IMG/VR virus record: IMGVR_UViG_3300037418_002133
Coordinates: 52,087-116,086 of that record
Reading direction: 5' to 3' (one strand)
DNA length: 64,000 nucleotides
DNA from: a virus
In this document: piece after piece, positions 537-60,526 of the stretch
Position numbering within the stretch: the first letter of the stretch is position 1
Layout: every line of letters begins with the position of its first letter
Notes under the pieces: generated by a model
Told to the model about the DNA's origin: nothing
The model's database searches: none
Seen by the model: only the letters and a program-made list of their open reading frames with translations
Made by a program: the position numbers and the translations under genes

Positions 537-842
537 TCAGTCGACGATCTGCCAATCCTCGGCGAGAAGATCGGTCTGCGACGCGACCCACGGCACAACA
601 TCGCCTTGAGCGGTCTTCATGTCGATGTGACCGTGATACTGGATCTCGGTGCCTTCCGGGTAGATCCCCAGAAGCGGCGGGCGATTCACCTTGAAGGTCG
701 AGCCACGCACCAGAAACAGGAACATGCCCTTGCCGTTCCAGCCGGCACGGGCGACGCGCGCTCCATCCTTGATCGCAACGAGGGCGCTGGAAAACGAAAA
801 GCCACCCTGTCTGGTTCGCTGCGTCAAAACTTCTTCGGTCAT
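537..842 (-). CDS. DUF2829 / Tad2-like (Thoeris anti-defence sponge family) protein
   Basis: FSSALVAIKDGARVARAGWNGKGMFLFL...VPWVASQTDLLAEDWQIV is the typical DUF2829 pattern. Confidence 0.8.
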   Translation of the reverse strand: MTEEVLTQRTRQGGFSFSSALVAIKDGARVARAGWNGKGMFLFLVRGSTFKVNRPPLLGIYPEGTEIQYHGHIDMKTAQGDVVPWVASQTDLLAEDWQIVD

Positions 843-1474
843 TCTGTCTTCTCCAGTTCAACTTTCTCGCGGAAACGCTTTGTCACCTTCAATGAGGCGC
901 CGATCTCATCCGCCAGATCGGTGTGGGTGGTCGCGACGATCAGGGTCTTGCCGAGACGCCGGGCGGTCTTCTGCATCGAATAGGCGACACACTTCGCGGT
1001 GACGCGGTCGAGCACGGCGCCGAACTCGTCGGCAACCCAGACGTCGGCGCCCTTGTCCATCAGCATTGCCAGCTTCAGCCGGTAGCGCTGTCCGTCGGAG
1101 AGTTCATTCGGCTTGCGGATATAGATCCAGGCGTCGGAAATGCCGGCCTTCGCCAACAGATCGGCCGCTTCGGTCGTGGTGTCACCAACGCACTCGATCA
1201 CCGGCTTGTCCGGCGCCTCTAGCGCGTTCAGATCGGCAACCTTGAGACCCTTCTCGATCATCTGGTCGCGCAATTCGCGCAGCAGCAGCGACTTGCCAGA
1301 CCCGGATTGACCGGTGATGTAGACCACGTCGCCCTGCCTGACCTCGACTTCGAGATCGTCGTAGATCACGAAACGCTTGTCCGAGAGACCAAGTCCAAAG
1401 GCTTCGGCAACTTCCAGTACGCGCGGCGTGCGGTCGACCGACGAGCTGAAGGACTTGTTGACGAGGTATTTCAT
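839..1474 (-). CDS. Stand-alone ABC-family ATPase
   Basis: Walker A GQSGSGKS, signature LSDGQ, Walker B VWVADEF, H-loop ATTH; no permease nearby. Confidence 0.9.
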   Translation of the reverse strand: MKYLVNKSFSSSVDRTPRVLEVAEAFGLGLSDKRFVIYDDLEVEVRQGDVVYITGQSGSGKSLLLRELRDQMIEKGLKVADLNALEAPDKPVIECVGDTTTEAADLLAKAGISDAWIYIRKPNELSDGQRYRLKLAMLMDKGADVWVADEFGAVLDRVTAKCVAYSMQKTARRLGKTLIVATTHTDLADEIGASLKVTKRFREKVELEKTE

Positions 1475-1836
1475 GCGCCGGGATCCTCGGGATCGTCATC
1501 GACGCTTTCTTCTTCCTCAATCTCGGCCAGGCGATCGCGATAACCGTCGATTTCTTCGCGAATTTTCATCTTCACCGAGTCGACCGCAAGATTGACCATC
1601 GCCAGTTGCTCGATGGAGGTATCCATGCGGCTGACCAGCGCGCAGATCGGATTGTTCTGGTGAAGACCGGCAATAACCAGATGCGTCAGATCACCGGTCT
1701 TGATGCGCTCAAGGATGTCCTCGCACAGCGCCAGTGATGTCTTGTCGACTTTCGGCTTACTTGCTTCGGTCGGATCGGGCGCGACAAACGCCTTGCGGGT
1801 AAAGGCGTTGATGACCTTTGGGCTGTCGTCGCTCAT
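1471..1836 (-). CDS. hypothetical protein
   Basis: Overlaps both neighbours by 4 bp in the operon; acidic C-terminus. Confidence 0.7.
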   Translation of the reverse strand: MSDDSPKVINAFTRKAFVAPDPTEASKPKVDKTSLALCEDILERIKTGDLTHLVIAGLHQNNPICALVSRMDTSIEQLAMVNLAVDSVKMKIREEIDGYRDRLAEIEEEESVDDDPEDPGA

Positions 1837-2495
1837 GCTGCCTGCTCCAATACGAACAGCAGCGCGTCAACGCCGGTCTTGTCGACCTTTCCCTCGATAA
1901 TGGTGAGCAATTCCCGGATCTTGCGGCTCTGCTCGACGGTAACGCGCTTGAAACCAAGCGCGTCGGAGACTGGCGCCGCGGAGTGATCGACTTCGGCTTC
2001 CTTCGCCGAATTCTCCTCTTTCTGCTTTTCAACCGCCGTGGTGATGTTATCGACGAACATGCCATCGTCGATATCGGCGAAATCCGAGGTCATTCGGGTG
2101 ATCTCGCTCTCGTCGAAGCCGATCGTGTCCATGTCGAAGCCGTCCTCGGCCAGTTCGGTGAGGGCCTGCTGAAGCAATTCGGTGTCGTATTCGGTCGAGG
2201 CGACCTGATTGTCCGAGAGCCGCAAGGCGTCCGCCTCGGCTTCGGTGAGATCGTCGCGCACCACGACGGGAATCTGGGTCCAGCCCAGCGACAATGCGGC
2301 GAGCCGGCGCCCATGACCGGTAATGATGGTGCCGTCGGGGCGAATGTTCAGAGGGTTGGCGACGCCGAATTTCTGGATCGACTTGGCGAGCTTGGCGACG
2401 TGAGCGTCCGGGTGCTTCTTGGCGTTCTTCGGATGCACGACCAACTTGTCGATCGGCCACAACACAACAGGTCGTTTGGAATCAATTGTCGTCAT
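1833..2495 (-). CDS. ParB/Srx N-terminal domain protein
   Basis: HPKNAKKH...LAKSIQKFG...IITGHGRRLAA...IPVVV...LRLSDN. Confidence 0.88.
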   Translation of the reverse strand: MTTIDSKRPVVLWPIDKLVVHPKNAKKHPDAHVAKLAKSIQKFGVANPLNIRPDGTIITGHGRRLAALSLGWTQIPVVVRDDLTEAEADALRLSDNQVASTEYDTELLQQALTELAEDGFDMDTIGFDESEITRMTSDFADIDDGMFVDNITTAVEKQKEENSAKEAEVDHSAAPVSDALGFKRVTVEQSRKIRELLTIIEGKVDKTGVDALLFVLEQAA

Positions 2496-2667
2496 CGTCG
2501 TTCATTCCTGAATAAATCGCCATCAATTCGTCGTCGTTGAGTTCGCGATCCTTGAATTTCTGCTCGAAAAACTCGCCAGCGCCGCAGTTTAGGCATCGCC
2601 GGGTAATTCGCGTTTCGCTGAAAAACTTGCAGTCCCGGCATTCCGGATGGCGAGGCTTGACGTACAT
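2482..2667 (-). CDS. small CxxC...CxxC zinc-binding protein
   Basis: CRDC and CLNC pairs; in operon between the two ParB-domain genes. Confidence 0.6.
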   Translation of the reverse strand: MYVKPRHPECRDCKFFSETRITRRCLNCGAGEFFEQKFKDRELNDDELMAIYSGMNDDDDN

Positions 2668-3330
2668 TCAGTCCTCAACGGCTCCGAAAAGCTGATGCAC
2701 GAGGGCATCGCCGGCGTTCGTGAGGTCATCCGATGCGTTGAAATTCTGGCGCTTTCGGATCTTGCTGATCAGTTCGGTGATCTTCTCGGCATCGCCGAGT
2801 GTCACCTTGAAGCGCATGATGGTGTGGGTCTTCGGTGCGCGCTCGGGTTTGGGTTCGTCCGGCGCGGGCGCCTCGTCATATCCCGTCAGATCGTCGAGTT
2901 CATCGAGCGCTATACTAACGGAATTGAAGATATTGTTGATATCGGTCTCAGTGAACGGCAGGAATTCCTTAACATTCGCGCCCTCTTCCATACTCTCCAG
3001 CATTTCAGCGAGGCGAATGGTGTCGTCGGCGCCGTAACGGGCGTTATCAGCGAGCGAAATCTTCTTCGCCTTGTCGTCGTTGATGTCGCCGAGATTGAAG
3101 ATTGGAACCTGTTTCAGTCCCGCCGCCTTCGCGGCTTGCCAGCGATGTTCGCCGCCGATGATCTCGTAGGGATGATCCTCATCGTTAGTTTCGCGCACCA
3201 CGATCGGCTTGAACAAGCCAAGCCGGCGGATCGATTCCGCCAGTTTCTCCTCGTTTTCCGGAGAGACGATGTTGATGTTGAAGCTGTTCGGCCGAAGCAG
3301 GTCGATATCGACCATCATTTGAACTGGCAC
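2668..3330 (-). CDS. ParB/Srx N-terminal domain protein (second copy)
   Basis: LRPNSFNIN...LAESIRRLGLFKPIVVRE...IIGGEHRWQAAK; start at GTG 3330 or ATG 3318, since the track start at 3471 overlaps the divergent gene. Confidence 0.85.
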   Translation of the reverse strand: MPVQMMVDIDLLRPNSFNINIVSPENEEKLAESIRRLGLFKPIVVRETNDEDHPYEIIGGEHRWQAAKAAGLKQVPIFNLGDINDDKAKKISLADNARYGADDTIRLAEMLESMEEGANVKEFLPFTETDINNIFNSVSIALDELDDLTGYDEAPAPDEPKPERAPKTHTIMRFKVTLGDAEKITELISKIRKRQNFNASDDLTNAGDALVHQLFGAVED

Positions 3331-3349
3331 CGAAGCGAAAACCTTATAT

Positions 3350-3365
3350 AAGTCAGAACTGACTT
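3350..3365. promoter_or_regulatory. operator palindrome AAGTCAGAACTGACTT in a divergent intergenic region
   Basis: One of about 15 copies in the window. Confidence 0.8.
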
Positions 3366-3400
3366 TTACATAACCACGAAGATTGGTCCTTTGCAAGCCC

Positions 3401-4993
3401 ATGCCTGAAACCATTACCATTGCCAGCAATGCCGTCATCGCCAAGATCATCAACGCCACCAATCCGGTCAAGGATCTGGTGTCGCAATGTCTGAGCTATG
3501 TCGTTGAGGGCGCTGAATTTATGTCGGCGTTCGCAACGTCCGGCTGGGATGGGCGTTCGAGCTTCTTTGCACGGCGCACCTGTACGTTCCCGGCAGGCTT
3601 CGTGCATATGGTGCATGGCGAACTCAAACGCGCCGGCTACGAGGTTCGCATCGTCAAGCGCCCCAATCCTTTGCCGCTCGGTCCGGAAAATCCGATCGTC
3701 GACGAGTTCGGCAATGACGATCCCCGCTACGACTTTCAGCCTCGAACGCTGCGCCAGATCGAAAAACACGGGCGCGGCATCGTTCAGGTCGCAACGGGCG
3801 GCGGAAAAAGCAAGATCGCCAAGCTGATCGCCATGCGTTACGGGCGCCCGACGCTGTTTCTGACCACGCGCGGCGTGCTGATGTACCAGATGAAGGACGC
3901 CTTCGAGCAGGATTGCAAGGTTCGCACCGGTGTCATTGGTGATGGTCACTGGGCGCCGACCAAAGGGTTCAACGTCGGCATGGTGCAGACCCTGGTGTCG
4001 CAGCTCGCCGAACCGGATCTCAACGCGGAGATTCGTGAAGTTCTGCGCCAGAACACCGAGAAGGGCGAGGGTCGAACCAAGGCGCAATGCACGGAACTGG
4101 GCAATCAGCGGTTCACGCTCAAGACCAAGATTCGCGCCCGTGTCATCAAGTTCCTCGAAATGATGGAAGTGGTGATCGGCGAGGAAGCGCATGAAGCCGG
4201 CGGAAACTCCTATTACGAGATCCTGAAATACTGCAAAAACGCCAATATCCGGGTTGCCCTGACCGCGACGCCGTTCATGCGCGAGAACATGCTCGACAAT
4301 ATGCGGCTGATGGCTGCATTCGGGCCGATTTTGATCAAGGTGTCGGAAAAGACGCTGATCGATCGCGGCATTCTGGCAAAGCCCTACTTCATGTATCGCT
4401 CGCCGGCGCCGCATCCGAAGCTGCGCAAGACCTCGCCCTGGCAACGCGCCTACGAACTGGGTGTGGTCGAAGGGCCGCATCGCAATGCCGATATTGCCGC
4501 ACTAGCCAAGACCGCGGCCAATCATGGTCTGTCGGTGCTTATTCTGGTTCAGCGCAAAAAGCACGGCCCCTTTCTGAAGAAGCTGCTGGAATCTCAAGGT
4601 TTGCGGGTCAAGCAAATTCAGGGCGAGAACGACCAGAACGAGCGCAAAAAGGCGCTGAACGATCTCGCGGCCGGACGCATCGACGTTCTGATCGGATCCA
4701 CCATCGTCGATGTCGGCGTCGACGTGCCCTCGATCGGCATGGTCATTCTTGCTGGCGCCGGCAAGGCAGAGGTGGCGCTGCGTCAGCGCATCGGCCGCGG
4801 AATGCGCGCCAAGAAGGTTGGCCCGAACGTGGTGTTCATCGTCGATTTTACCGACGAATTGAACAAGCACCTGCGCGAGCACGCGAAACAACGCCGCGCC
4901 ATCGTCGAAACAACCGACGGCTTTGTGCAGGGCATTCTGCCAAAGGGCCAGGATTTTCCCTGGCACCTGTTCGCGAAAAAGAAAGCAGCGTGA
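3401..4993 (+). CDS. superfamily 2 DNA helicase (UvsW / type III Res-like)
   Basis: VATGGGKS, IGEEAHE (DExH variant), ALTATP, VGVDVPSI, QRIGRGMR. Confidence 0.9.
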   Translation: MPETITIASNAVIAKIINATNPVKDLVSQCLSYVVEGAEFMSAFATSGWDGRSSFFARRTCTFPAGFVHMVHGELKRAGYEVRIVKRPNPLPLGPENPIVDEFGNDDPRYDFQPRTLRQIEKHGRGIVQVATGGGKSKIAKLIAMRYGRPTLFLTTRGVLMYQMKDAFEQDCKVRTGVIGDGHWAPTKGFNVGMVQTLVSQLAEPDLNAEIREVLRQNTEKGEGRTKAQCTELGNQRFTLKTKIRARVIKFLEMMEVVIGEEAHEAGGNSYYEILKYCKNANIRVALTATPFMRENMLDNMRLMAAFGPILIKVSEKTLIDRGILAKPYFMYRSPAPHPKLRKTSPWQRAYELGVVEGPHRNADIAALAKTAANHGLSVLILVQRKKHGPFLKKLLESQGLRVKQIQGENDQNERKKALNDLAAGRIDVLIGSTIVDVGVDVPSIGMVILAGAGKAEVALRQRIGRGMRAKKVGPNVVFIVDFTDELNKHLREHAKQRRAIVETTDGFVQGILPKGQDFPWHLFAKKKAA

Positions 4994-5865: not shown

Positions 5866-6683
5866 TGGACAAGAAATCCGACCTTCTTCAGGTGATCTAC
5901 GACAATCAGCATGTCGGCTGGTTGAGCGATCATTACGGCGCCGGCATCATGAAGCGGAATCCGCGATTCATTCGGGTCATCAGAGACACGCTGGAGAGCA
6001 CTCTGGACGTTGAATCGGTCAAGTCGGAGACTGTCGATCTTCCTCTGATCGTGCGCAAATTTCGGATCGACGAGGCTGAACTTGTCTCTCGGAAATTCGA
6101 TCGGCCTCTGATCGATGTGCCGCCTTATGCCGTCGAAAATCGCTCTCCTCTCGATTGTAGCGTCACCTATCACTGGATCGCCGCGCTGATCACTCTCGAT
6201 CAGTACGAATGGCTGTTCGATCGGGAAACCTTCATTCCGACCGACACCATGCCGGCTCTCGAAGAGATCAAGTCTTTTTCGGGAATGAAGCCGACGCGCG
6301 TGTGGCTTGATGAATATTTTGAATCGCCCGTGCCGATGTTCGACTCGGCAGAAGAAGCGCACGCCTACGACCCGCTTGATGCGATTTTGCCCAAGAAGAT
6401 GCCGTCCTTCCACATCAAGGCGGAAGACATCGTCGCCGGCACGGTCACATCAACCAAGCTCACGTCGGGGCCGAGGCTCGCCGACTATGTCGAGACGCCG
6501 CGCAAATACGGCAAATCCATCATGTTGGAAAAGGCAAAATCGGAGATCATCGCGAAGCTGGAAGCTGATTTCGCCAAGTCAATGACAGTTGGTCTTTCTG
6601 AACCAGAATATTCTAGGTCGGGTGTTCTAACCGCTGAGAAGGTCCGCGAGGTCATGATGAAGCTGGAGTCGATGAAGCGATGA
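5865..6683 (+). CDS. hypothetical protein
   Basis: TGATG overlap with the upstream stop; long ORF in operon. Confidence 0.65.
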   Translation: MDKKSDLLQVIYDNQHVGWLSDHYGAGIMKRNPRFIRVIRDTLESTLDVESVKSETVDLPLIVRKFRIDEAELVSRKFDRPLIDVPPYAVENRSPLDCSVTYHWIAALITLDQYEWLFDRETFIPTDTMPALEEIKSFSGMKPTRVWLDEYFESPVPMFDSAEEAHAYDPLDAILPKKMPSFHIKAEDIVAGTVTSTKLTSGPRLADYVETPRKYGKSIMLEKAKSEIIAKLEADFAKSMTVGLSEPEYSRSGVLTAEKVREVMMKLESMKR

Positions 6684-7132
6684 GCGTCGAAAAGGAATAT
6701 TTCAAAACCTCGACGATATCGAACGACTTCTTTCGTTTAATTGCTGGTACGCAGTTGGGCGCAGGCTGCTTTCGCGAAGTTTATCGGTGCAGCATCGATC
6801 CTACGATGGTTATCAAATTCGAGGTCGGCTCCGGCGACTTCAACAATGTTGCCGAGTGGGATATCTGGAGCAATCTGAAGGATCACCCCAAGCTCGGTAA
6901 ATGGCTGGCGCCGTGTATTGCCATTTCGCCATGCGGGTCGATTCTGCTTCAGCGCTATGCCGGGCCTCTGCCGGACAACAAGCTGCCCAAGAAAGTTCCG
7001 GCATTCTTCACCGACATCAAGTCCGACAACTGGGGCCTGATCAACGGTCGGCCGGTCTGTCGCGACTACGGCCATCATCGCCTTTATACCGTCGGACCCT
7101 CCGCCAGGCTGATCAAGGCCAATTGGCGCTAA
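6680..7132 (+). CDS. minimal protein-kinase-like fold protein
   Basis: Gly loop LGAGCFREVY, VIK lysine, helix-C Glu, catalytic DIKSDNWG, DYG. Confidence 0.7.
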   Translation: MSVEKEYFKTSTISNDFFRLIAGTQLGAGCFREVYRCSIDPTMVIKFEVGSGDFNNVAEWDIWSNLKDHPKLGKWLAPCIAISPCGSILLQRYAGPLPDNKLPKKVPAFFTDIKSDNWGLINGRPVCRDYGHHRLYTVGPSARLIKANWR

Positions 7133-8585: not shown

Positions 8586-8998
8586 CCTGCGACAAGGTTA
8601 GGGCAATATTCCTATTGGTGCGGGGATCCGGATGATGTATCCGGGAGTTGGCATGGGTCAATTCTTGTGACAAGGTTAGGACGGAAAAGCTGTCGAGGGG
8701 CCAGAAGGCAATGCCTTCGCTGCATCGCACAAAAACCTAAGACATCGCATCTGTTGCAATTATGCAACACACGACGCGTCCCGCGAAACGCGTGACATTT
8801 CCGCAACACAGCGTTTCTTGCGATTCTGTGTTTGTGCAGCGCACAATAAAATAAACACGATTTCGCATTGCAACATGCTATGCGCAAAATGCATAACACG
8901 ATTTAGTTAAGTAGTGATAATTATGTCACACGTGCTGCTGCAACAAATCTGTAGCATGATCAAGTCACGAATTGTTACACTCTGTAACATCATGTGAT

Positions 8999-9028
8999 TT
9001 GTTCGCGTTGCTGTAACACGTTATAACT
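8999..9028 (+). promoter_or_regulatory. sigma70-like promoter for the island genes
   Basis: TTGTTC-N17-TATAAC about 47 bp upstream of ATG 9075. Confidence 0.45.
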
Positions 9029-9074
9029 TAGTCACGTTAGCAATGACGCTAACACTACAGAGTGAGAAACGACG

Positions 9075-9692
9075 ATGACGAAAGTTAATGACAAGATCGC
9101 GAACTACGTTGCAGAACTCAACAGCGCGCTTGACGCTCGCGCTTCGTATGAACACGACAAGAGCGCTGCGAACGACTCGATTCAGACGTGCATCGCAGCG
9201 CTTCGTAAGAGCGTCACACACGTCGATATTGCGAGCGTGCTACTCTCATGCGACGTCGATTCAAACTTCATCAATCGCAGCGAGCGTTCGAATAATCGTT
9301 ATAACGTCTACGCTGCACAGAAAGTCGACAACGTCGCGCGCGCTGTCAAAAGCGTTGCAGAACTGAATCACTATTCGCTTGCGATCTTGCGCGTTGCGCT
9401 CGCTGTCGAAAAGATCGACTCTAAGCTGTCGCACAAAGACGCTGTAGCAGCGTGCAGCGCGTCTGTGAAGCACAGCGACGCGAAGCGCGAATCAATCATC
9501 AAGTCGCTACGCTACGCAAAGCACGTCGCTGCAAATACAGCGTCAACGCAATCGTCGTCGTCGATTAACGCGCTTCAAACGTGTCACATTCTGAGCGAAG
9601 CGCGCGATGCTGCGAACAACATCGTCTACAGCGTCAATCGCGAGAGCGAAGCGTTCAAGACGCTCGCGAAGAGATACGAACTCGCGATCTGA
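9075..9692 (+). CDS. Gly/Pro/Trp-free protein, paralog of 11993-12802; putative DNA-binding immediate-early factor
   Basis: Colinear similarity to the 11993 protein (FINRS..RYNVYA vs FVNRS..RYNVYA; TASTQSSSSINAL vs TAPTQASSTMQAL). Confidence 0.85.
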   Translation: MTKVNDKIANYVAELNSALDARASYEHDKSAANDSIQTCIAALRKSVTHVDIASVLLSCDVDSNFINRSERSNNRYNVYAAQKVDNVARAVKSVAELNHYSLAILRVALAVEKIDSKLSHKDAVAACSASVKHSDAKRESIIKSLRYAKHVAANTASTQSSSSINALQTCHILSEARDAANNIVYSVNRESEAFKTLAKRYELAI

Positions 9693-9702
9693 CAACGCAA
9701 TG

Positions 9703-9730
9703 CAGAGTGACGCTTCACAGCGTCACTCTG
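9703..9730 (+). terminator. hairpin after the island gene, built without GG/CC
   Basis: CAGAGTGACGCT-tcac-AGCGTCACTCTG 12-bp stem. Confidence 0.55.
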
Positions 9731-9773
9731 TAACATCACTTAATCAAGTCACCGCAAACACAGAGCTAGAACA

Positions 9774-9959
9774 ATGCAGCATGAGAAACGACTAATGAAG
9801 CAACGCGAATCAGCGCGCGTCGAAAAGTACAAGCGCGCGTTTGACTGCGACTCTGTTGACGCTGATTATCTATTCGACGACGTCGCACGCGACTGTGACG
9901 CGACGTTAGCAGCGATCGAACTGCGAGAATCGATCACGCGCTACGCGATAGCGCACTAG
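9774..9959 (+). CDS. small Gly/Pro/Trp-free hypothetical protein
   Basis: 61-aa ORF inside the GG/CC-free island, followed by a hairpin. Confidence 0.6.
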   Translation: MQHEKRLMKQRESARVEKYKRAFDCDSVDADYLFDDVARDCDATLAAIELRESITRYAIAH

Positions 9960-9970
9960 ACGCGTGACAT

Positions 9971-10011
9971 AGTCGAAAGTCTATAGACGAAAGTTTATTA
10001 GACTTTCGACT
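9971..10011. terminator. inverted repeat closing the island
   Basis: AGTCGAAAGTCTA ... TAGACTTTCGACT 13-bp arms. Confidence 0.5.
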
Positions 10012-10543
10012 GTGACATTTAAGCCTCACTGTTGCTCTGAAGCCACTGTGGTATGCCCGCCACAGTGGCATTTTTGCCACAGGCGAACCCCATGGGGAGG
10101 GTAAGGCAGACCTGAAATCCCAAGGATTTCAAGCGGTCTGCCGATCCCATGGATCCCACCGGTTCCTAATCCCATACCTAGTGACCGGTTCCCATGCCCA
10201 TCCATGGCGATCGGTTCCGGACGCCAAAACCCATGGCAGGCTTCCTTGCCGGACAGGGCACCCATAGCAGGCGCCCTCTCCTTTTGGCTGCTGGCTACTC
10301 CTCGGCTGTGCCAGGCACCATCCACACCGACGAGGAAGCCCCGTAGACGTCAGTACGACGAGCGAACATCGACGACATGCGAGCGATTTCCATGAGCTTG
10401 TTTATGCATCCGAAGCGCATAAGCCCAAACGTATTCAACTTGGGCTGATAGAGGATGATCATGGTGTTTTCCTCAGATGAAGAAGGCGGCGATGATGAAG
10501 GCCCCAACGATCATGATGGGGTAGCTGATGAACTCGTCGAGCA

Positions 10544-10780
10544 TCACTGGAACTCCACCGGTACGAAGCCGAGGCTGCGGCTGGCGTTCTCCAGGTGCGA
10601 CCGGGCGATGTCGAGGGAATATATTCCGCTCTCGTCCTTGGAGATTTGCTTCACCGCAGCGTTGAGCCAGGTCAGGGCGTAGCGCAGGTGTTCCTCAGCG
10701 TCGGTATCGGCGAAGCGACCGATAGCGTTCAGGACGCTCATACGGGCGCGATTGACGAGTGCGAGGCGCTTGCTTCTCAT
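10544..10780 (-). CDS. hypothetical protein
   Basis: GGAG RBS; CC-N9-CC box at 10831-10843 upstream. Confidence 0.65.
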   Translation of the reverse strand: MRSKRLALVNRARMSVLNAIGRFADTDAEEHLRYALTWLNAAVKQISKDESGIYSLDIARSHLENASRSLGFVPVEFQ

Positions 10781-10990
10781 TTTCGATCTCCGTGTTTGCT
10801 CAACACAAAGATCGTCGCATATCGCCTTGTGGGATGCGGTCGGGCGTATAAGGCGAGTTTATACGGCCTGGCGTTTACGGACCGGCCTGGCGATGGAAGA
10901 CGGCCTGGCCGAGGATGACCGGACCGGCCTGAAGCCCATGGAGCGCCATGCCTGCCCATGGAGGACCGAGGGATCTCTAAGGGCGCGTAA

Positions 10991-11024
10991 AACCCTATAG
11001 ATATATAAATATATCTATAGGGTT
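10991..11024. repeat. 16-bp perfect inverted repeat next to a CC-N9-CC box
   Basis: AACCCTATAGATATAT-aa-ATATATCTATAGGGTT; box at 11025-11037. Confidence 0.85.
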
Positions 11025-11037
11025 GGGATGCGAACGG

Positions 11038-11304
11038 CTACGCGAGGCAAAGCTCGCTGGACTGACGGGCTGCTTCTTCGATGCACAGCGCGACGAGGTG
11101 CTGGGCGTTGAAGGCTTTCTCGTGGAGCATCGCTTCGTTGATCGCGGGATCGATCTTGCTGATGGTCATTTCGTTGGTGTCGTAGTTGTAGGACGACGTG
11201 AACAGCACGGTATCTTTGTAGATCGCGCTGAAGGCGCATTCGGGGTTCATCGGGTGCGCGTCGTTGGAAAGCTCGATCTTGATGGTCTTGAGGGTGCTTT
11301 GCAT
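11038..11304 (-). CDS. hypothetical protein
   Basis: Own promoter (box 11353-11365); GAGAG-type RBS. Confidence 0.7.
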   Translation of the reverse strand: MQSTLKTIKIELSNDAHPMNPECAFSAIYKDTVLFTSSYNYDTNEMTISKIDPAINEAMLHEKAFNAQHLVALCIEEAARQSSELCLA

Positions 11305-11367
11305 GTTAGCTCTCGTTTGTGTGAACGTGAGAACTATCTCACGTTCACTTTTGGGATGCGAACGGGC

Positions 11368-11658
11368 TCAGACGGTCATGTCGAAGGAGATCTTCATGGT
11401 CTCGTCGACGATCAGCTTGCGGAGGGTTTCACTGGAGTTGCAGCGGTAGTAGACGCTGTCTCCCGCAGCAGCTTGCGCGTCGTTGGGATCGAACTCGCTG
11501 TCATGGAGCTGCGTGACGCGCACAGCGAAGCATTTGGTGTCGTCTTTGGCGATCGCGCACGCTTCGATGACGGTCCTTTGGTTCATGACGGAGAAGAAGC
11601 GCTCGCCTAAGTCTTGCGACATGAGGGAATCGAAAGTGGTTTTGTCGATCTGGTGCAT
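11368..11658 (-). CDS. hypothetical protein
   Basis: Start MHQIDK at 11658, downstream of an operator copy at 11681. Confidence 0.7.
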   Translation of the reverse strand: MHQIDKTTFDSLMSQDLGERFFSVMNQRTVIEACAIAKDDTKCFAVRVTQLHDSEFDPNDAQAAAGDSVYYRCNSSETLRKLIVDETMKISFDMTV

Positions 11659-11992
11659 GTTTTGCTCTCGCTGTGAAAATAAGTCAGTTCTGACATACGA
11701 CAGTATAGCTAGGAATGCGAGCGGCGGCTCGTGGTGCGTCCGTTGGGGTATCGAGCTGGGTCTGTAGCTTAGGAGCGCTAAGGACGCACCATGGGGCTTC
11801 CCTAGCGATTTCCCATGGGAAGCCATGGTTCGCCTCGGGACACCACGGCCGCGCCCTCTCCAAAAATCCGCCTTGGTTCGCCAATCGGTCGGTCCCATGG
11901 ACCCCACCGGTTCCAGATACCAAGGATGCCCCATGGTTCACAATTCGCCACAACGAAGGGGAGCCGAAGCTCCCCTCGCTGTCTCGTTCGCC

Positions 11993-12802
11993 TTACGCTG
12001 CCTTCGCGAGCACCGCTTCGAGCTTGGCGACCGCAGGGTGATCGGTCAGCTCGAACGTCGGGTTCTTGTGCGACCCCGAGCGCTTGACGATCCCGAGCGT
12101 TTCGAGCGCCTGCATCGTCGAGGAGGCTTGGGTCGGCGCCGTCGACGCTCCGACAGTGTGGCGGATCAGGATCGCCTTCACCGCGCCTTCGACGCGGATC
12201 TTGTCGGAGGCAGCGGCTTTCGCCAACTCGCCGGTGAACGTGATCCCAGCTTTGCGACAGGCGAACAGCGAGCGCATGATGGCGAAATTGATCTTGTTGG
12301 TGATTTCGCCACCACTGAGACCGACGATCGCATCGGCGAGCTTGCCGAACGCGTAGACGTTGTAGCGCTTGCCATCGTGTACGCTGCGGTTGACGAACGC
12401 CTCGGTGACACCGCACGCCAACAGCACCGCACCCGCTCGCGTCGAGGACAACTGGGCGCGCGCCTTCTTGAGCGTCTTCTGGATGTTGTCGTTGCCGTTC
12501 GCGAGTTCGAAGTCCGCACGCTCGTCGACGGCATTCGCCATCTTGACCGTCGCTTCGATTTTCGCCTCATCGCTGATGTTCGCCATCATGTCGTCGAAGC
12601 TCTGGATTTCGCCATCGGCCTGGACTTCGAGGACCGGGTCGATATTCGCCTCATCCTCGATCAGCGCCTCATCGATCGCCTCAAGCTCGACGATTGCCTC
12701 GGCCGACGCCTCATCGAGCATGTCGAGCGCCATGAACTGCACGGCGTTGCTGGTCTCGGTTTCGAGCGCGGCGATCTGAGTCTTCGTGGTCTTCTTTGCC
12801 AT
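11993..12802 (-). CDS. acidic N-terminal protein, paralog of island gene 9075-9692
   Basis: Start MAKKTT at 12802; hairpin at about 11958-11977; promoter box 12868-12880. Confidence 0.85.
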   Translation of the reverse strand: MAKKTTKTQIAALETETSNAVQFMALDMLDEASAEAIVELEAIDEALIEDEANIDPVLEVQADGEIQSFDDMMANISDEAKIEATVKMANAVDERADFELANGNDNIQKTLKKARAQLSSTRAGAVLLACGVTEAFVNRSVHDGKRYNVYAFGKLADAIVGLSGGEITNKINFAIMRSLFACRKAGITFTGELAKAAASDKIRVEGAVKAILIRHTVGASTAPTQASSTMQALETLGIVKRSGSHKNPTFELTDHPAVAKLEAVLAKAA

Positions 12803-13239
12803 TGTCGTTCTCTCGTTTCGTTGTCGTCGCGTCATTGCGACAATCGAACTATCTCAGAACGAGGCAAGGGAAGCGGTCGGCAAAACAGTAGGCGAATAGG
12901 CAAGGTGTAGGCGAAAATGGGTGAGGCGAACCGCGGGCCGGACCATGGATTTTCGCCACCTTTCCGCTAAGAGAATCTATCTACTAGATATATATCTTAT
13001 ATAGTGAAGAGACGGCTTTTTTCGCAGACACATTCCGGACGTCTAAAAGGTTCGCCATGGAGACTCAAGGGGCTCCGGTAGCGACTGATTTTACAGGGAA
13101 TTCAGACCCCGGCCGTGGAATGCCATGGGAAGTTATGGCGAACCTCGGCGACGCCATGGGTGTGTAGGCGAAAAGCCCTTGGTTTATAGGCGAAAATCGT
13201 GGGGAGAGCATGAGGCGAATTGGAATGCCACGGCGCGCT

Positions 13240-13830
13240 CTCTAATCTACCTTCTTCACCTCCTCTATTCGTACCCTCTCCCTCTCTTCAGACCCCTCAC
13301 CTCTTCACCACTGCTCTCTAGGCTCTCTCGCTCTGTAGGTTCTCTCTACGGTTCTTGAGAGTTTTAGGTTGAGGTCTTGGTGCTATTCGCTTTGGTGCTG
13401 GCTCTGACCGTTCCCTTTGTTTGATATATCGGTTGAGGTCTCTCTACCGGTTCCTGAAAAGTTGATGGTTGTTGTTCTGCTGGTTTTGGGGATTGTTGAC
13501 CCTCGTGTTCTGCTCTCTGAAAATTTTGCTTTGGGGTCTCTCTTGGGGAGTGCTGATTTTGGGTTCTGAAATCGCTTGTTTTGCTGGGAAAGTTGAGTGT
13601 CAACCTTTTGCATTTTCGAGGTGGGGTTGACGAAACGTTGACAAAAAGTAAACCAGAACTGACTTATACGGTAATCTGGTAGTGATATCGGGATTTGGGA
13701 GGTTTACTTCTGGTTCACATGTAAACCATTTTGAGAGCTGGAATTGGTATTGGTTTGAGAAAATCAGGGATTTTTGACGGGTTTTCAGCCGTTTGGTTTA
13801 GATCTTGGTTTACATGGTTGACAAACCATG
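13240..13830. other. non-coding, strongly strand-skewed region with GGTTTAC/GTAAACC repeats (possible origin or packaging region)
   Basis: Pyrimidine tract about 13240-13350, A-poor G/T tract about 13360-13620, repeats about 13649-13827. Confidence 0.4.
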
Positions 13831-57184: not shown

Positions 57185-60100
57185 CTATTCAAGCTGCTCT
57201 GACACCACGCGGAACACCTCGTTCAGCAGGACTTGCTTGTCCGGATCGTGCCAGATTTCGCCGGGGTTGAAACCGACAACCAGATTTGCATCCAGCTCCT
57301 TGTTATAGACCACCTTGCCAGCGCTCTCGGACGCCTTACCCTTGAGATCAGGTAGGAAGTGGCGCACGGTGATCGAGCCCAACAGAACGATGACGGGCGG
57401 CTTCAATAGGGCGATTTCTTCCTTGAGATAGGGAAGGTAGATATCGATCTCCTTTGCCGAAACCTGTTTTCCCTCCTTCGGCCGCTTGATCAGCGCCGTG
57501 TAGTAGCCGGACGCTTTGGTCAGATCGTTCTCCATCAGCGCTTCCAGCGTCGAACTGAACGCCTCGCTCTGGGTCATCTGACCCTGTTTTTCCTCGCCGG
57601 AATTGGGCGCATCGTAGATCACCATGAACTTCGCTGCGCCGCCCATCATCGGCTTGACGCAGATGCCGTCCTCAACGCGTTCGGCGCGATACTGCGCGAC
57701 CAACTCGCCAAGTTTCGCCTTGGTAAACTTGTCAGTCGCCATGTCGTGATCGATCGGCACGGTCGCATCAATCAGACCGGGAATGAGGTCGCGTTGATCT
57801 TTGATCCGGCTCGGATCCTTGGCCGCGGGAGTTCCAGGCATGACGCTGGCGAAGGCGCCGATCAGATCCAGCTTCTTGATATGTCCGACGTTGCAGCGCC
57901 GGCGTTCGACCCGCTCGGACAGATTGTCGATGCTAGTGAACGGTCCATCCATTCGTGCCTTGACGATCGCCTGAGCGCTCGGCGTGCCGATACCTTTGAC
58001 CCGATTGAATGGGATTGACAGACGGGTATCGGTGAGGATTTCGAACTGGTCGGTCGACAGATTGATATCGGGCATGTCGATCTCAATCCCGGACCGCGAC
58101 GCATCCTTGAGGATCGCCGGCAGCTTGTCTTCCTTCATCAGCGACAGCGCTGCGGCAAAGAACTCGACCTGGAAATTGGTCTTGAGCCACATCGCCTGGT
58201 AGGAGATCAGGGTGTATTCGACCGAGTGCGACTTGTTGAAGCCGTAACCGGCGAATCCTGCGATCTTCTCGAACAGATCGACGGCCCACTCCTCGGTGCA
58301 GCCGACTGTCGCGATACAGCCCGCGACGAACTTGCCACGTTCTTTCTCCATCGCCTCGGGCAGCTTCTTGCCCATGATCTTGCGAAGCTTGTCAGCGTCC
58401 GGCGCCGAATAACCGGCGATCGCGCGCGAGGTCTGCATGACCTGTTCCTGATAGACGAACACGCCAAATGTCGGCTTCAGGATCGGCTCCAGCAGCGGGT
58501 GATCGTATTCGATCGTCTCCAGACCTTGCTTGCGCTTCCAGTAGCTATCCATCATGCCCGATTCCATCGGACCCGGCCGATAGAGCGCGGTTGCTGCCGT
58601 GATGTCCTCGAACGTAATGACGCCGTCCTTGCCCAGCTCCTTGAGCAGGCGACGCATTCCGCCAGACTCGAACTGGAAGATTCCGGTCGTCTTGGCTTCG
58701 GCAAAATTCGCCAGCACCTTCGGGTCATCGAGCGGAATCTGCATCAGATTGACCTTCTTCGAGTGACGCTTGCGAATATAGTCCAGCGTCAGCTTGATGA
58801 TATCCAGCGCTTCAAGCCCCAGAATATCGACTTTGACCAGGCCCTGATCCTCGATAATGTGCTTGTCCCAGTTCATCGTGGCGCCGTCTTTGCGCCGCTC
58901 GATCACGCCACGATCGACCAGATCACAACCACCCACGACGACGCCGGCAGCGTGTCGGCCGTAATTGGTCATGACGCCTTCGAGACGGGTGCAGAATCCC
59001 CAAACCTCGGGTAAGCTGTCGCGGAATTTCGCGATTTCGCTGACCATTTCAGCCGCAACTTCCAGCTTGATGTTGGCGCCGTGTGCCTTCGGTGTGAACT
59101 TGGAGCAGTTGTAATCGGCTTCGGATAGCTCGAACGCCTTACCGACGCCCCTGATCGAGGAAGCCGCGGCGAGCGTTGCAAAGTTCGAGATGCCGGCGAC
59201 GCGCGCCTTGCCGTACTTCTCGGTCAGATATTCGATAATTTCACCGCGCCGACTGGACATAAAATCCAGGTCTGCATCGGGGAGGTCGATACGGTCAGGA
59301 TTGATAAAGCGCTCGAACAGGAGATCGAATCGTATGGGGTCGCAGTCGGTGATTCCAACCAGGTAGGCGACCAGCGACCCGCCGACAGAGCCGCGCCCAG
59401 GGCCGACGAAAATACCGTTGGATTTTGCATAGTTGACAATGTCCATCACGAGCAGGAAGTAGCCGGCGAACCCGAGTTTCTTGAGAACGCCAAGCTCATA
59501 GGACAGTCGCGGCTTGTATTCAGCCGCAAGCTGTTCTTTCGTCGGGTGATGCCCGAACGCCGGCTTTGACAGCCGATCGGACCAGCCCTTAACGCAAGCC
59601 GCAACCAGCGTCCCGAATTCATCGTCAGCCATCTTCGGAAGCGACACAGGCGCTTTCGACCAGGTATAGTGGACCTTGGCCGCGAGCAGGGCGGTGTTTC
59701 TGATGCCGTGATTGAACGGTTTTCGCGCGTCGATGCCACGCTTGGCAAGATTCTCGACCGAGATTTTGCTGGCGCTGATCAACTCGGCGTTGGTCATCGG
59801 GTGCAGATCGGTGAAAACCGGCCGCTCCACCCAGATATCGGACAGTTTGTTGTTGTCCGACACCGTGCTGAAAACATCGCGCGCATCCGATTTCCCGGTT
59901 TCGTAGAGCACCGGGCGCGTCACCAAGGTCGACCACGCGAACTTCTCGGCAAGCTCGATGCCACGCTTGTTGATCGAATCGTAATAGGGTGAATTGATCG
60001 GCGTCAGGGTGACGTAGAAGCTGTCATAACCGACCCTGTTCTGGATCCGAATTAGGGTCGCTTCGGCGTCGGGATGGGTGATCAGGCTTTGCATATCGCC

Positions 60101-60526
60101 GGTTGCGATCGCCACGTCATCGCCCGACAGACCGTCCAGCTCCTTGATGATATCCTCGATGCCTAATTTGGCCGAGAAATAGAACCGCTCGTCTGAATTC
60201 GCCAATGTTAGCAGGCGAAACAACGCCTTAAGCCCGCGCTCGGACATGACGTACCAGGTCAGATAGTATTCGGGCGGCGTTTTCTTGTTTTCCTTGGTCT
60301 TGCGCCATGCGACATCATCGACGATCCGGAGCCGACAGCCGATGATCGGCGCAATGCCGGCTTCCTTGGCTTTGCCGGTAAACTCGATCAAGCCGGTGAC
60401 TGACATTGTATCGGTCAGGGCAACCGCTGTTGCGCCGGCCTTCTTGGCATTTTCGACCAGTTGTTCGACGGTCAGAATGCTTTCGCCGATAGAGAATGTG
60501 GATCGTGCAGCAAGAACCGCGTGCAT
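57185..60526 (-). CDS. dnaE: DNA polymerase III alpha subunit with C-terminal uracil-DNA-glycosylase-like domain
   Basis: PHP N-terminus, GPGRGSVGGSLVAY, FERFINPDRIDLPDADLDF, GYGFNKSH; C-terminal LKEEIALLKPPVIVLLG. Confidence 0.95.
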   Translation of the reverse strand: MHAVLAARSTFSIGESILTVEQLVENAKKAGATAVALTDTMSVTGLIEFTGKAKEAGIAPIIGCRLRIVDDVAWRKTKENKKTPPEYYLTWYVMSERGLKALFRLLTLANSDERFYFSAKLGIEDIIKELDGLSGDDVAIATGDMQSLITHPDAEATLIRIQNRVGYDSFYVTLTPINSPYYDSINKRGIELAEKFAWSTLVTRPVLYETGKSDARDVFSTVSDNNKLSDIWVERPVFTDLHPMTNAELISASKISVENLAKRGIDARKPFNHGIRNTALLAAKVHYTWSKAPVSLPKMADDEFGTLVAACVKGWSDRLSKPAFGHHPTKEQLAAEYKPRLSYELGVLKKLGFAGYFLLVMDIVNYAKSNGIFVGPGRGSVGGSLVAYLVGITDCDPIRFDLLFERFINPDRIDLPDADLDFMSSRRGEIIEYLTEKYGKARVAGISNFATLAAASSIRGVGKAFELSEADYNCSKFTPKAHGANIKLEVAAEMVSEIAKFRDSLPEVWGFCTRLEGVMTNYGRHAAGVVVGGCDLVDRGVIERRKDGATMNWDKHIIEDQGLVKVDILGLEALDIIKLTLDYIRKRHSKKVNLMQIPLDDPKVLANFAEAKTTGIFQFESGGMRRLLKELGKDGVITFEDITAATALYRPGPMESGMMDSYWKRKQGLETIEYDHPLLEPILKPTFGVFVYQEQVMQTSRAIAGYSAPDADKLRKIMGKKLPEAMEKERGKFVAGCIATVGCTEEWAVDLFEKIAGFAGYGFNKSHSVEYTLISYQAMWLKTNFQVEFFAAALSLMKEDKLPAILKDASRSGIEIDMPDINLSTDQFEILTDTRLSIPFNRVKGIGTPSAQAIVKARMDGPFTSIDNLSERVERRRCNVGHIKKLDLIGAFASVMPGTPAAKDPSRIKDQRDLIPGLIDATVPIDHDMATDKFTKAKLGELVAQYRAERVEDGICVKPMMGGAAKFMVIYDAPNSGEEKQGQMTQSEAFSSTLEALMENDLTKASGYYTALIKRPKEGKQVSAKEIDIYLPYLKEEIALLKPPVIVLLGSITVRHFLPDLKGKASESAGKVVYNKELDANLVVGFNPGEIWHDPDKQVLLNEVFRVVSEQLE

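Follow-up and report, generated by a model that had tools for sequence, protein, structure and literature searches.

In a 64,000-nucleotide stretch of viral DNA (IMG/VR record IMGVR_UViG_3300037418_002133; hereafter the window, whose numbering is used throughout), the gene for a putative DNA-binding protein lies in an island that is virtually free of the dinucleotides GG and CC, and our results support the view that this nucleotide ban outweighs conservation of the protein. The product of 205 amino acids contains no glycine, no proline and no tryptophan, and a paralog of ordinary composition is encoded a few kilobases away. The ban is strand-asymmetric, with GG purged more strictly than CC from the sense strand, a feature newly found here. 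The window comprises bases 52087-116086 of a single contig of 116,086 bp, which is a 116-kb phage-plasmid of the Rhizobium RHEph10 / V1VFA-S / pLM21S1 type. Its relatives include the Rhizobium siphophages RHEph10, RHph_N1_15, V1VFA-S and B1VFA as well as plasmids of about 117 kb in Methylobacterium, Shinella, Rhizobium and Sinorhizobium (pLM21S1). These relatives have been described as phage-plasmids (PMC12509600, PMC5537653). Literature searches turned up no earlier account of islands without GG/CC or of phage proteins without Gly, Pro and Trp.

The recoded paralog and its normal neighbour

By sequence comparison the island copy (9075-9692, + strand) and the normal copy (11993-12802, - strand; 269 amino acids; 48 GG and 42 CC on its sense strand) are true paralogs. 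The original prediction had aligned the two proteins over about 190 amino acids on the strength of a series of short matching blocks. Every one of these blocks is present in our BLASTP alignment, in which the proteins share 31% identity over 159 amino acids (E 4e-20), and an hhalign comparison of the family profiles spans 191 columns (probability 99.9, E 3.6e-31), so that the similarity is significant by either method. The Gly/Pro substitutions that it had listed for the island copy are likewise real (CGV>CDV, HDGKRY>RSNNRY, AFGK>AAQK, TAPTQ>TASTQ and LGIV>CHIL) and hold across the island family. When all 951 open reading frames (ORFs) of at least 40 amino acids in the 116-kb genome were searched with single sequences and with three profile hidden Markov models, exactly two family members were recovered, the next best match having an E value of 0.05. 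A maximum-likelihood tree of 116 sequences is split by one branch into 68 island-type and 48 normal-type members, with a Shimodaira-Hasegawa-like approximate likelihood ratio test (SH-aLRT) value of 99. This position of the two types on opposite sides of one branch shows that a single old duplication gave rise to both. In all 12 loci with enough flanking sequence the two copies are 2-4 kb apart, and they may share a strand or lie on opposite ones. V1VFA-S and RHph_N1_15 have island genes that are distant family members (hhalign E 2.9e-10 and 1.3e-4, respectively) with long branches, which leave their exact placement in the tree unsure.

In the island copy a helical domain at the N-terminus is predicted to be followed by a winged helix at the C-terminus. 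The body of the normal copy is predicted to have the same layout, preceded by an acidic N-terminal extension of about 73 amino acids that is predicted to be disordered. An added acidic N-terminus had been noted for this one protein; across 42 family members the extension has a median length of 90 amino acids and consists of 23% Asp+Glu versus 6% Lys+Arg. The start of the normal copy at 12802, as called in public data, is most likely, and an alternative in-frame ATG at 12835 would give a protein of 280 amino acids. AlphaFold2 models have a mean predicted local distance difference test score of 96.6 for the island copy and 85.4 for the normal copy, whose first 65 or so residues are disordered, and the order of secondary-structure elements is identical in both models. 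At the C-terminus of the island copy model a helix (residues 153-169) is followed by two strands (173-177 and 183-187). Structural matches to MarR, PadR and histone H5 (linker-histone) have Z scores of 7.7-9.3 over both copies, the best winged-helix match having Z 8.1 with a root mean square deviation (rmsd) of 2.7 over 79 residues for the island copy, and Z 9.3 with an rmsd of 2.8 over 83 residues for the normal copy. Both proteins are predicted to end in a winged-helix domain, and Z scores in this range support a common fold only. In both families conservation is highest in the helix that precedes the wing (normal copy, STAPTQASSTMQAL; island copy, NTASTQSSSSINAL), and the recognition helices of the two copies (island copy, NTASTQSSSSINALQ; normal copy, STAPTQASSTMQALE) are nearly identical, following the pattern T-A-[SP]-T-Q-x-S-S-x-x-x-A-L.

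The predicted C-terminal domain is like that of winged-helix regulators (MarR, PadR, ArsR-like and linker-histone fold proteins) in having a helix-turn-helix (HTH) and a beta-hairpin wing, and the N-terminal helical domain has no match. By sequence neither paralog belongs to a curated winged-helix family (MarR, PadR, HxlR and others); there is no Pfam, PHROG or NCBIfam hit and no meaningful PDB sequence hit to either, and a Foldseek search of the PDB returned nothing at E 0.001 or better. Two unnamed viral proteins in BFVD share the fold, and the nearest clusters in the ESM Atlas are unnamed. Neither paralog matches any Rep family, and membership among iteron-type initiators was not found; the RepC of the element (RP-C and RP-C_C domains) is encoded elsewhere in the genome. 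The island copy, rewritten in an alphabet of 17 amino acids, is predicted with high confidence to retain the fold of its normal counterpart. A predicted winged-helix DNA-binding fold can thus be written without glycine, proline and tryptophan and can last in this form through deep divergence, which is relevant to the design of proteins with reduced alphabets.

Nucleotide ban and protein conservation

The island (8801-10024) contains no GG and a single CC, at 9752, where about 150 GG/CC would be expected, and the genome has no second island of this kind. The density of GG/CC elsewhere in the window and in the genome is normal (0.12 per base), and a comparable gap is seen nowhere in the genome for any other dinucleotide. 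The island is contained in a zone of 1343 bases (8707-10050) without GG on the + (sense) strand, which reaches further upstream than the CC-free zone. It is the longest such zone in the 116-kb genome, where the second longest has 151 bases. Matching islands with a length of 0.7-1.7 kb are found in relatives (loci L001-L009, L013-L015 and L020-L025), and their proteins have diverged to 41% identity. Fourteen pooled islands (14.9 kb) contain 9 GG and 14 CC; only these dinucleotides are depleted, the others being near normal, CG and GC are raised, and the G+C content inside the island genes stays at 50-57%. The trinucleotide CTA is about six times commoner on the sense strand of the pooled islands (14 loci) than genome-wide.

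The paralog pair provides a built-in control, in that one family is represented in one genome by two genes a few kilobases apart, one banned and one not. This control shows that the absence of GG and CC is selected rather than an accident of composition, and that the selection suffices to strip out every conserved glycine and proline. Among 70 homologs of the island family (down to 41% identity), 34 of 14,021 core residues (0.24%) are Gly, Pro or Trp, compared with 8.2% in the shared columns of the normal family. Thirteen columns are at least 50% Gly/Pro in 46 normal-family members, and all 13 are replaced in the island family, by A, S, N, E, Q, V, H, R or D in 50 members. In lineages with a relaxed ban, Gly and Pro return at Gly/Pro columns of the normal family (island positions 31, 63, 115, 171 and 192). 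No GG or CC occurs at the codon junctions of the island gene, where 33.7 are expected and where none of 2000 codon shuffles reaches zero. The gene also lacks the codons GCC, ACC, TCC, CGG and AGG, and the ban extends to leaders, spacers and upstream non-coding DNA. Because the junctions and the codons of other residues are also free of GG and CC, the ban is on nucleotides and not on codons or amino acids. That the depletion overrides protein-level conservation, as had been proposed from the two sequences, is thus upheld by the whole family, by the junctions and non-coding DNA, and by the return of Gly and Pro upon relaxation.

Two other origins of the pattern can be weighed against these data. 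One is a constraint on the protein or its translation, in which the selected trait is a protein devoid of Gly, Pro and Trp, perhaps because its translation can then be independent of elongation factor P or of tRNAs, and the DNA pattern is a by-product. The missing residues are exactly those of the codons GGN, CCN and TGG, and relatives carry tRNA genes and RtcB, as this explanation might lead one to expect. It is contradicted, however, by the junction and non-coding data, that is, by the purged leaders and spacers and the missing codons for other residues, and neighbouring genes retain proline yet have no sense GG; we consider it very improbable. The other is that the island is an unselected mutational scar, such as a CC-specific deaminase would leave. 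Several of the Gly/Pro replacements need no more than one or two transitions (G>D, G>N and P>S), but the G+C content of the genes and the compensating rise in CG and GC do not fit such a process. The ORF is moreover intact, has a confident predicted fold and is more conserved than its paralog, the mean column identity being 50% in the island family and 34% in the normal family, and the ban has persisted through divergence to 41% identity. The conservation data contradict a scar, and we rate its probability lowest of all.

Strand asymmetry and the putative reader

The asymmetry of the ban is seen in what remains of the two dinucleotides. In the island-family coding sequences of 17 loci we counted 28 residual sense GG and 114 residual sense CC (binomial P 9e-15, with sites that are not independent), the baseline in ordinary genes of the genome being 6.4 GG and 6.0 CC per 100 nucleotides. 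Residual CC exceeds residual GG in eight of the eight lineages with any residue. In L012 and L019 the sense strand is free of or poor in GG and CC is common. The island-family genes of two metagenome relatives in which the ban is largely lost have 17 GG and 49 CC (L011) and 5 GG and 32 CC (L019). The GG-free zone extends further upstream than the CC-free zone in many loci, and likewise in Pseudomonas phage nickie. In L007, L009 and L013 the purge begins only about 40-100 nucleotides upstream of the ATG, and L007 has GG in its promoter spacer; the purged zone is roughly coextensive with the transcription unit, as far as the presumed transcript ends allow.

Neighbouring genes of the window are purged on one strand. 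A gene for 88 amino acids (11038-11304, - strand) has no GG and 25 CC on its sense strand, and its protein contains Pro, without Gly or Trp. The sense strand of a gene for 95 amino acids (11368-11655, - strand) is GG-poor, with 4 GG versus 20 CC. Both are preceded by GAGAG leaders, GAGAG-type ribosome-binding sites being used by these two genes and by the normal copy alike, and the + strand is free of CC from 10994 to 11462, where genes run on the minus strand. Pfam, PHROG, NCBIfam and PDB sequence searches name no family for the small neighbour genes of the paralogs.

To a reader of duplex DNA, GG and CC are one and the same step, and a sense-strand bias cannot result from such a reader. The purge tracks the unit, sense GG is excluded most strictly, and the neighbours are purged on the sense strand only, and this suggests that whatever reads the banned word acts on the transcript or on the transcribed strand. 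The strand bias thus favours a reader of RNA or of the transcribed template, which narrows the search for it to factors linked with transcription or with RNA.

A reader of duplex DNA nevertheless deserves consideration as a less probable alternative. It might be a restriction or nicking enzyme, a marking enzyme or a DNA-coating silencer, and the island would be a stretch kept clear of its word, for example the first-entering DNA as in T5. Both strands are purged in most lineages, non-coding DNA included, and in the window the purge takes in DNA well upstream of the gene. The relatives resemble T5 in having an annotated A1 protein, direct terminal repeats, a 5'-nucleotidase and two ligases, and the element has in common with nickie a gene cluster by the terminase. 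Lying directly upstream of the terminase, this cluster (842-3471, - strand) encodes two ParB_N-domain proteins and an ABC-type ATPase and includes a small ORF; it is conserved in nickie (L030 3383-6849), which also bears an island. A symmetric reader does not, however, explain the sense-strand bias or the neighbours purged on one strand, and the promoter itself is unpurged in several relatives. No methyltransferase, TET, glycosyltransferase or transglycosylase domain was found in a scan of about 130 ORFs, many of which belong to no family and which lie outside the tail-gene part (about 20-44 kb). Furthermore, a cut or a hit by clustered regularly interspaced short palindromic repeats (CRISPR) elsewhere in the genome would still be lethal, unless the island alone is exposed. 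On this alternative the island copy would simply be the regulator required in that stretch.

The first-step-transfer (pre-early) region of T5, which classically lacks EcoRI sites, is among the closest known comparisons. Both T5 and the present element are large siphoviruses of similar size with terminal repeats; those of B1VFA are direct and 3.6 kb long (PMC12509600). In both, a small set of genes would work before or apart from the rest, a DNA-binding protein included, which in T5 is A2, an essential member of the pre-early set (bioRxiv 10.64898/2026.04.02.716235), and in both a short stretch would be kept clear of a locally harmful word. The 'A1 protein' annotated in RHph_N1_15 lies outside the island, an NT5C domain is encoded in the window, and the island proteins have no PHROG hit. 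The word differs from that of T5 in being a dinucleotide rather than a 6-bp site, in costing three amino acids and in being strand-asymmetric.

With regard to a reader of RNA, mRNAs that lack ACA survive in cells expressing MazF, which is the 'single protein production' system. T4 RegB cuts GGAG in early Shine-Dalgarno sites and CmdT marks GA in mRNA. The island unit resembles such motif-free mRNAs in that the whole transcript, with its leader and ribosome-binding site, would lack a very short sense-strand word: there is no GG on the + strand from 8707 to 10050, the ends of the transcript being presumptive. GAGA-type ribosome-binding sites are used here instead of GGAG. The likeness ends at the length of the word, which has two letters, at the purge of CC as well in most lineages, at the target, which may be RNA or the template strand, and at the enzyme, no such RNase or RNA-modifying enzyme having been found among the ORFs scanned. 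In the avoidance of restriction sites and of CRISPR protospacer adjacent motifs (PAMs), selection also strips a short DNA word from a mobile element. Known avoidance of this kind is genome-wide and statistical and concerns mostly palindromic sites of 4-6 bp, or PAMs, whereas the ban in the island is absolute, covers about 1% of the genome, has a two-letter word and a strand bias, and overrides conserved Gly and Pro. We found no symmetric depletion across the genome, the rest of which is normal with strand-biased residuals at the island loci, and CCNNGG is not depleted elsewhere (431 observed, 450 expected). In none of the systems compared does an absolute local ban on a word of two letters go together with a strand bias and with three amino acids being lost.

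The regulatory cluster and possible roles of the two copies

Judged by its sequence features, the island forms a self-contained transcription unit, in which two ORFs and a GG-free ribosome-binding site stand between a promoter-like region and a terminator; its transcript ends are presumptive. Half-sites GTCAC / GTAACA recur in the region upstream of the island copy (8966-9074, + strand), which also contains the ribosome-binding site GAGAAACGAC (9064-9073), rich in purines and free of GG. In relatives an AAGTCA-N4-5-TGACTT palindrome overlaps a sigma-70-like -35 box and the ribosome-binding sites are of the GAGA type, which is consistent with a promoter at this place. A second small ORF (9774-9959, + strand) would encode 61 amino acids, or 54 from an in-frame ATG at 9795, ahead of which GAGAAACGAC recurs (9783). 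Its product contains no Gly, Pro or Trp and has no family hit, and in annotated relatives a small second gene also follows the island copy. The unit is bounded by a hairpin like that of an intrinsic terminator (10042-10069, + strand), with a stem of 11 pairs, seven of them G-C, and the T-run tail ATTTTTGCCA; it is at this hairpin, or inside it, that GG/CC first reappear. The leader of the normal copy (12803-12863, - strand) is also GG/CC-free, within a 64-base gap from 12799 to 12863, and has the ribosome-binding site GAGAGAACGAC. It resembles the leader of the island copy, 9040-9067 and 12811-12838 being 71% complementary.

Arrays of CCATGG separate the genes of the cluster. Of 27 CCATGG sites in the genome, 16 lie within 10090-13826 (3.7 kb), in four intergenic blocks between the cluster genes. 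Array A (10084-10250; copies at 10090, 10147, 10202 and 10231) is a GG/CC-dense spacer with a 38-nucleotide repeat in common with array C (11789-11936; copies at 11789, 11813, 11823, 11895 and 11931). In array B (10936-11024), copies at 10936 and 10956 are followed by a perfect palindrome of 16+16 nucleotides at 10991-11024 (AACCCTATAGATATAT / ATATATCTATAGGGTT), which sits between these copies and the gene for 88 amino acids. Array D (12943-13230; copies at 12943, 13055, 13123 and 13154) is upstream of the normal copy and contains TAGGCGAA repeats. Across 12889-13196, TAGGCGAA / GTGTAGGCGAAAA repeats interleave with the CCATGG sites, and an AT-rich palindromic stretch similar to that of array B occurs at about 12970-13010. 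Nearly all relatives carry CCATGG arrays beside the pair, often with a spacing of 10 bp. V1VFA-S (L004 6400-9700) is devoid of CCATGG over 16.5 kb; there the same intergenic spacers carry CCCTAGG repeats, and in the normal copy the recognition helix is altered (NTASTQKSSTMTALK). The joint change of array and helix is one event of co-variation and no more than suggestive, and the CCATGG arrays are likely to be binding sites of the paralogs.

We propose, with about an even chance of being right, a joint reading in which both paralogs bind the CCATGG arrays, a reader of GG acts on the transcript or its template, and the island copy acts when the GG-bearing genes are off. Both proteins would bind the conserved arrays that separate the genes of the regulatory cluster, and the reader would act on the transcript or on the strand under transcription rather than on duplex DNA. 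The simplest rule would be that no RNA from the cassette may contain GG. If antisense RNA were also made over the main island, this rule would cover the purge of both strands and the offset of the two zones, and it would also explain why the neighbours are purged on one strand and why CC is not purged in some lineages. As the reader one can envisage a factor that cuts or binds RNA, or else a lesion or mark that the template strand bears at CC. The island copy would supply DNA-binding activity while the GG-bearing genes are silent, most likely at the start of infection, and the normal copy with its acidic tail would then add or take over a further function. A bootstrap copy of this kind, expressed from incoming DNA and followed later by the copy with the acidic N-terminus, as the original prediction had it, is plausible and matches the anatomy of the island; a pair of repressor and antagonist matches it equally well.

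Several observations weigh against the joint reading. The ban is relaxed or lost in L010, L011 and L019, and it is therefore not essential in every lineage. In the window the purge reaches 270-370 nucleotides upstream of the ATG, for which an RNA reader needs a long leader or a second transcript, and the near-complete loss of sense CC needs an extra assumption, such as an antisense transcript that is also without GG. The link between the proteins and CCATGG is drawn from co-occurrence and the one co-variation event. No candidate reader domain (RNase, RNA-binding, methyltransferase or other) was identified in the roughly 130 ORFs scanned, and among the sequencing runs containing window DNA there is no RNA run.

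The paralogs may instead be antagonists at shared operators, of the CI/Cro or repressor/activator type, in a switch for lysis-lysogeny or plasmid maintenance, an option that we regard as possible but distinctly less probable than the joint reading. The recognition helices are nearly identical, the copies differ by the acidic disordered tail, the region is a strand switch rich in operator-like arrays beside par genes, and palindromic operators lie over the island promoter in relatives, all of which would suit such a pair. A Cro/CI-type HTH protein encoded elsewhere, in a 20-kb stretch with repC, could on the other hand be the repressor, and antagonism itself does not explain the dinucleotide ban. 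A more specific version, again tentative, casts the short island copy as competitor or repressor and the long acidic-tailed copy as activator, and it is compatible with either kind of reader.

Returning to a GG reader that acts on transcripts or templates, we would extend it, as a speculation that we think less likely to hold than to fail, to a widely distributed group of large siphophages and phage-plasmids, which would have or face a factor that disables GG-containing transcripts or templates and in which a GG-less cassette with a regulator of 17 amino-acid types keeps working when ordinary genes, among them the normal copy of that regulator, are silent. Such a cassette would be a natural counterpart of the engineered motif-free 'single protein production', and should the reader turn out to be a weapon of the phage or a defence of the host that recognises two letters, it would represent a new kind of host-takeover or immunity mechanism. 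The paralog pair offers a direct experimental handle on these possibilities.

A GG/CC-free island of 1,137 bp is also present in nickie (L031 5938-7075; record 103,937-105,074), with the gene gp019 for 184 amino acids that include no Gly, Pro or Trp. The + strand of nickie is GG-free from 5637, which covers the opposite-strand gene gp020, whose product has Gly and Trp and no Pro. No similarity was detectable between gp019 and the paralog family, and gp001, considered as a relative of the normal copy, was rejected on comparison, so the recoded pair has so far been shown only in the Rhizobium-type clade. The protein annotated in nickie as 'DNA methyltransferase' matches ParB_N alone, weakly and below the Pfam cut-off. 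The ParB_N/ATPase cluster, RtcB, the tRNAs, PhoH, the A1-like protein and the two ligases are no more than leads to the reader.

Window DNA occurs in rhizosphere and soil metagenomes, and near-identical DNA was not found in plasmid or phage collections. The element encodes a DnaE-type polymerase, rIIA/rIIB, ribonucleotide reductase, SbcCD, RecA and CobS, along with a small ParA with a ribbon-helix-helix partner, RepC, terminase and tail genes. The annotation of RHph_N1_15 (L017 / L018) lists an RtcB RNA ligase, a homologue of the T5 'A1 protein', PhoH, an HslV-like peptidase and two ATP-dependent DNA ligases, and relatives carry tRNAs. An ORF for 150 amino acids (6680-7132, + strand) has no Pfam hit and contains a glycine-rich loop like the ATP site of protein kinases (GAGCFREV...VIKFE). 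The window also carries NT5C (5'-nucleotidase) and ThyX domains, and the DnaE-type DNA polymerase III alpha (57185-60526, - strand) ends in a C-terminal domain of the uracil-DNA-glycosylase superfamily (Pfam UDG, residues 965-1077).

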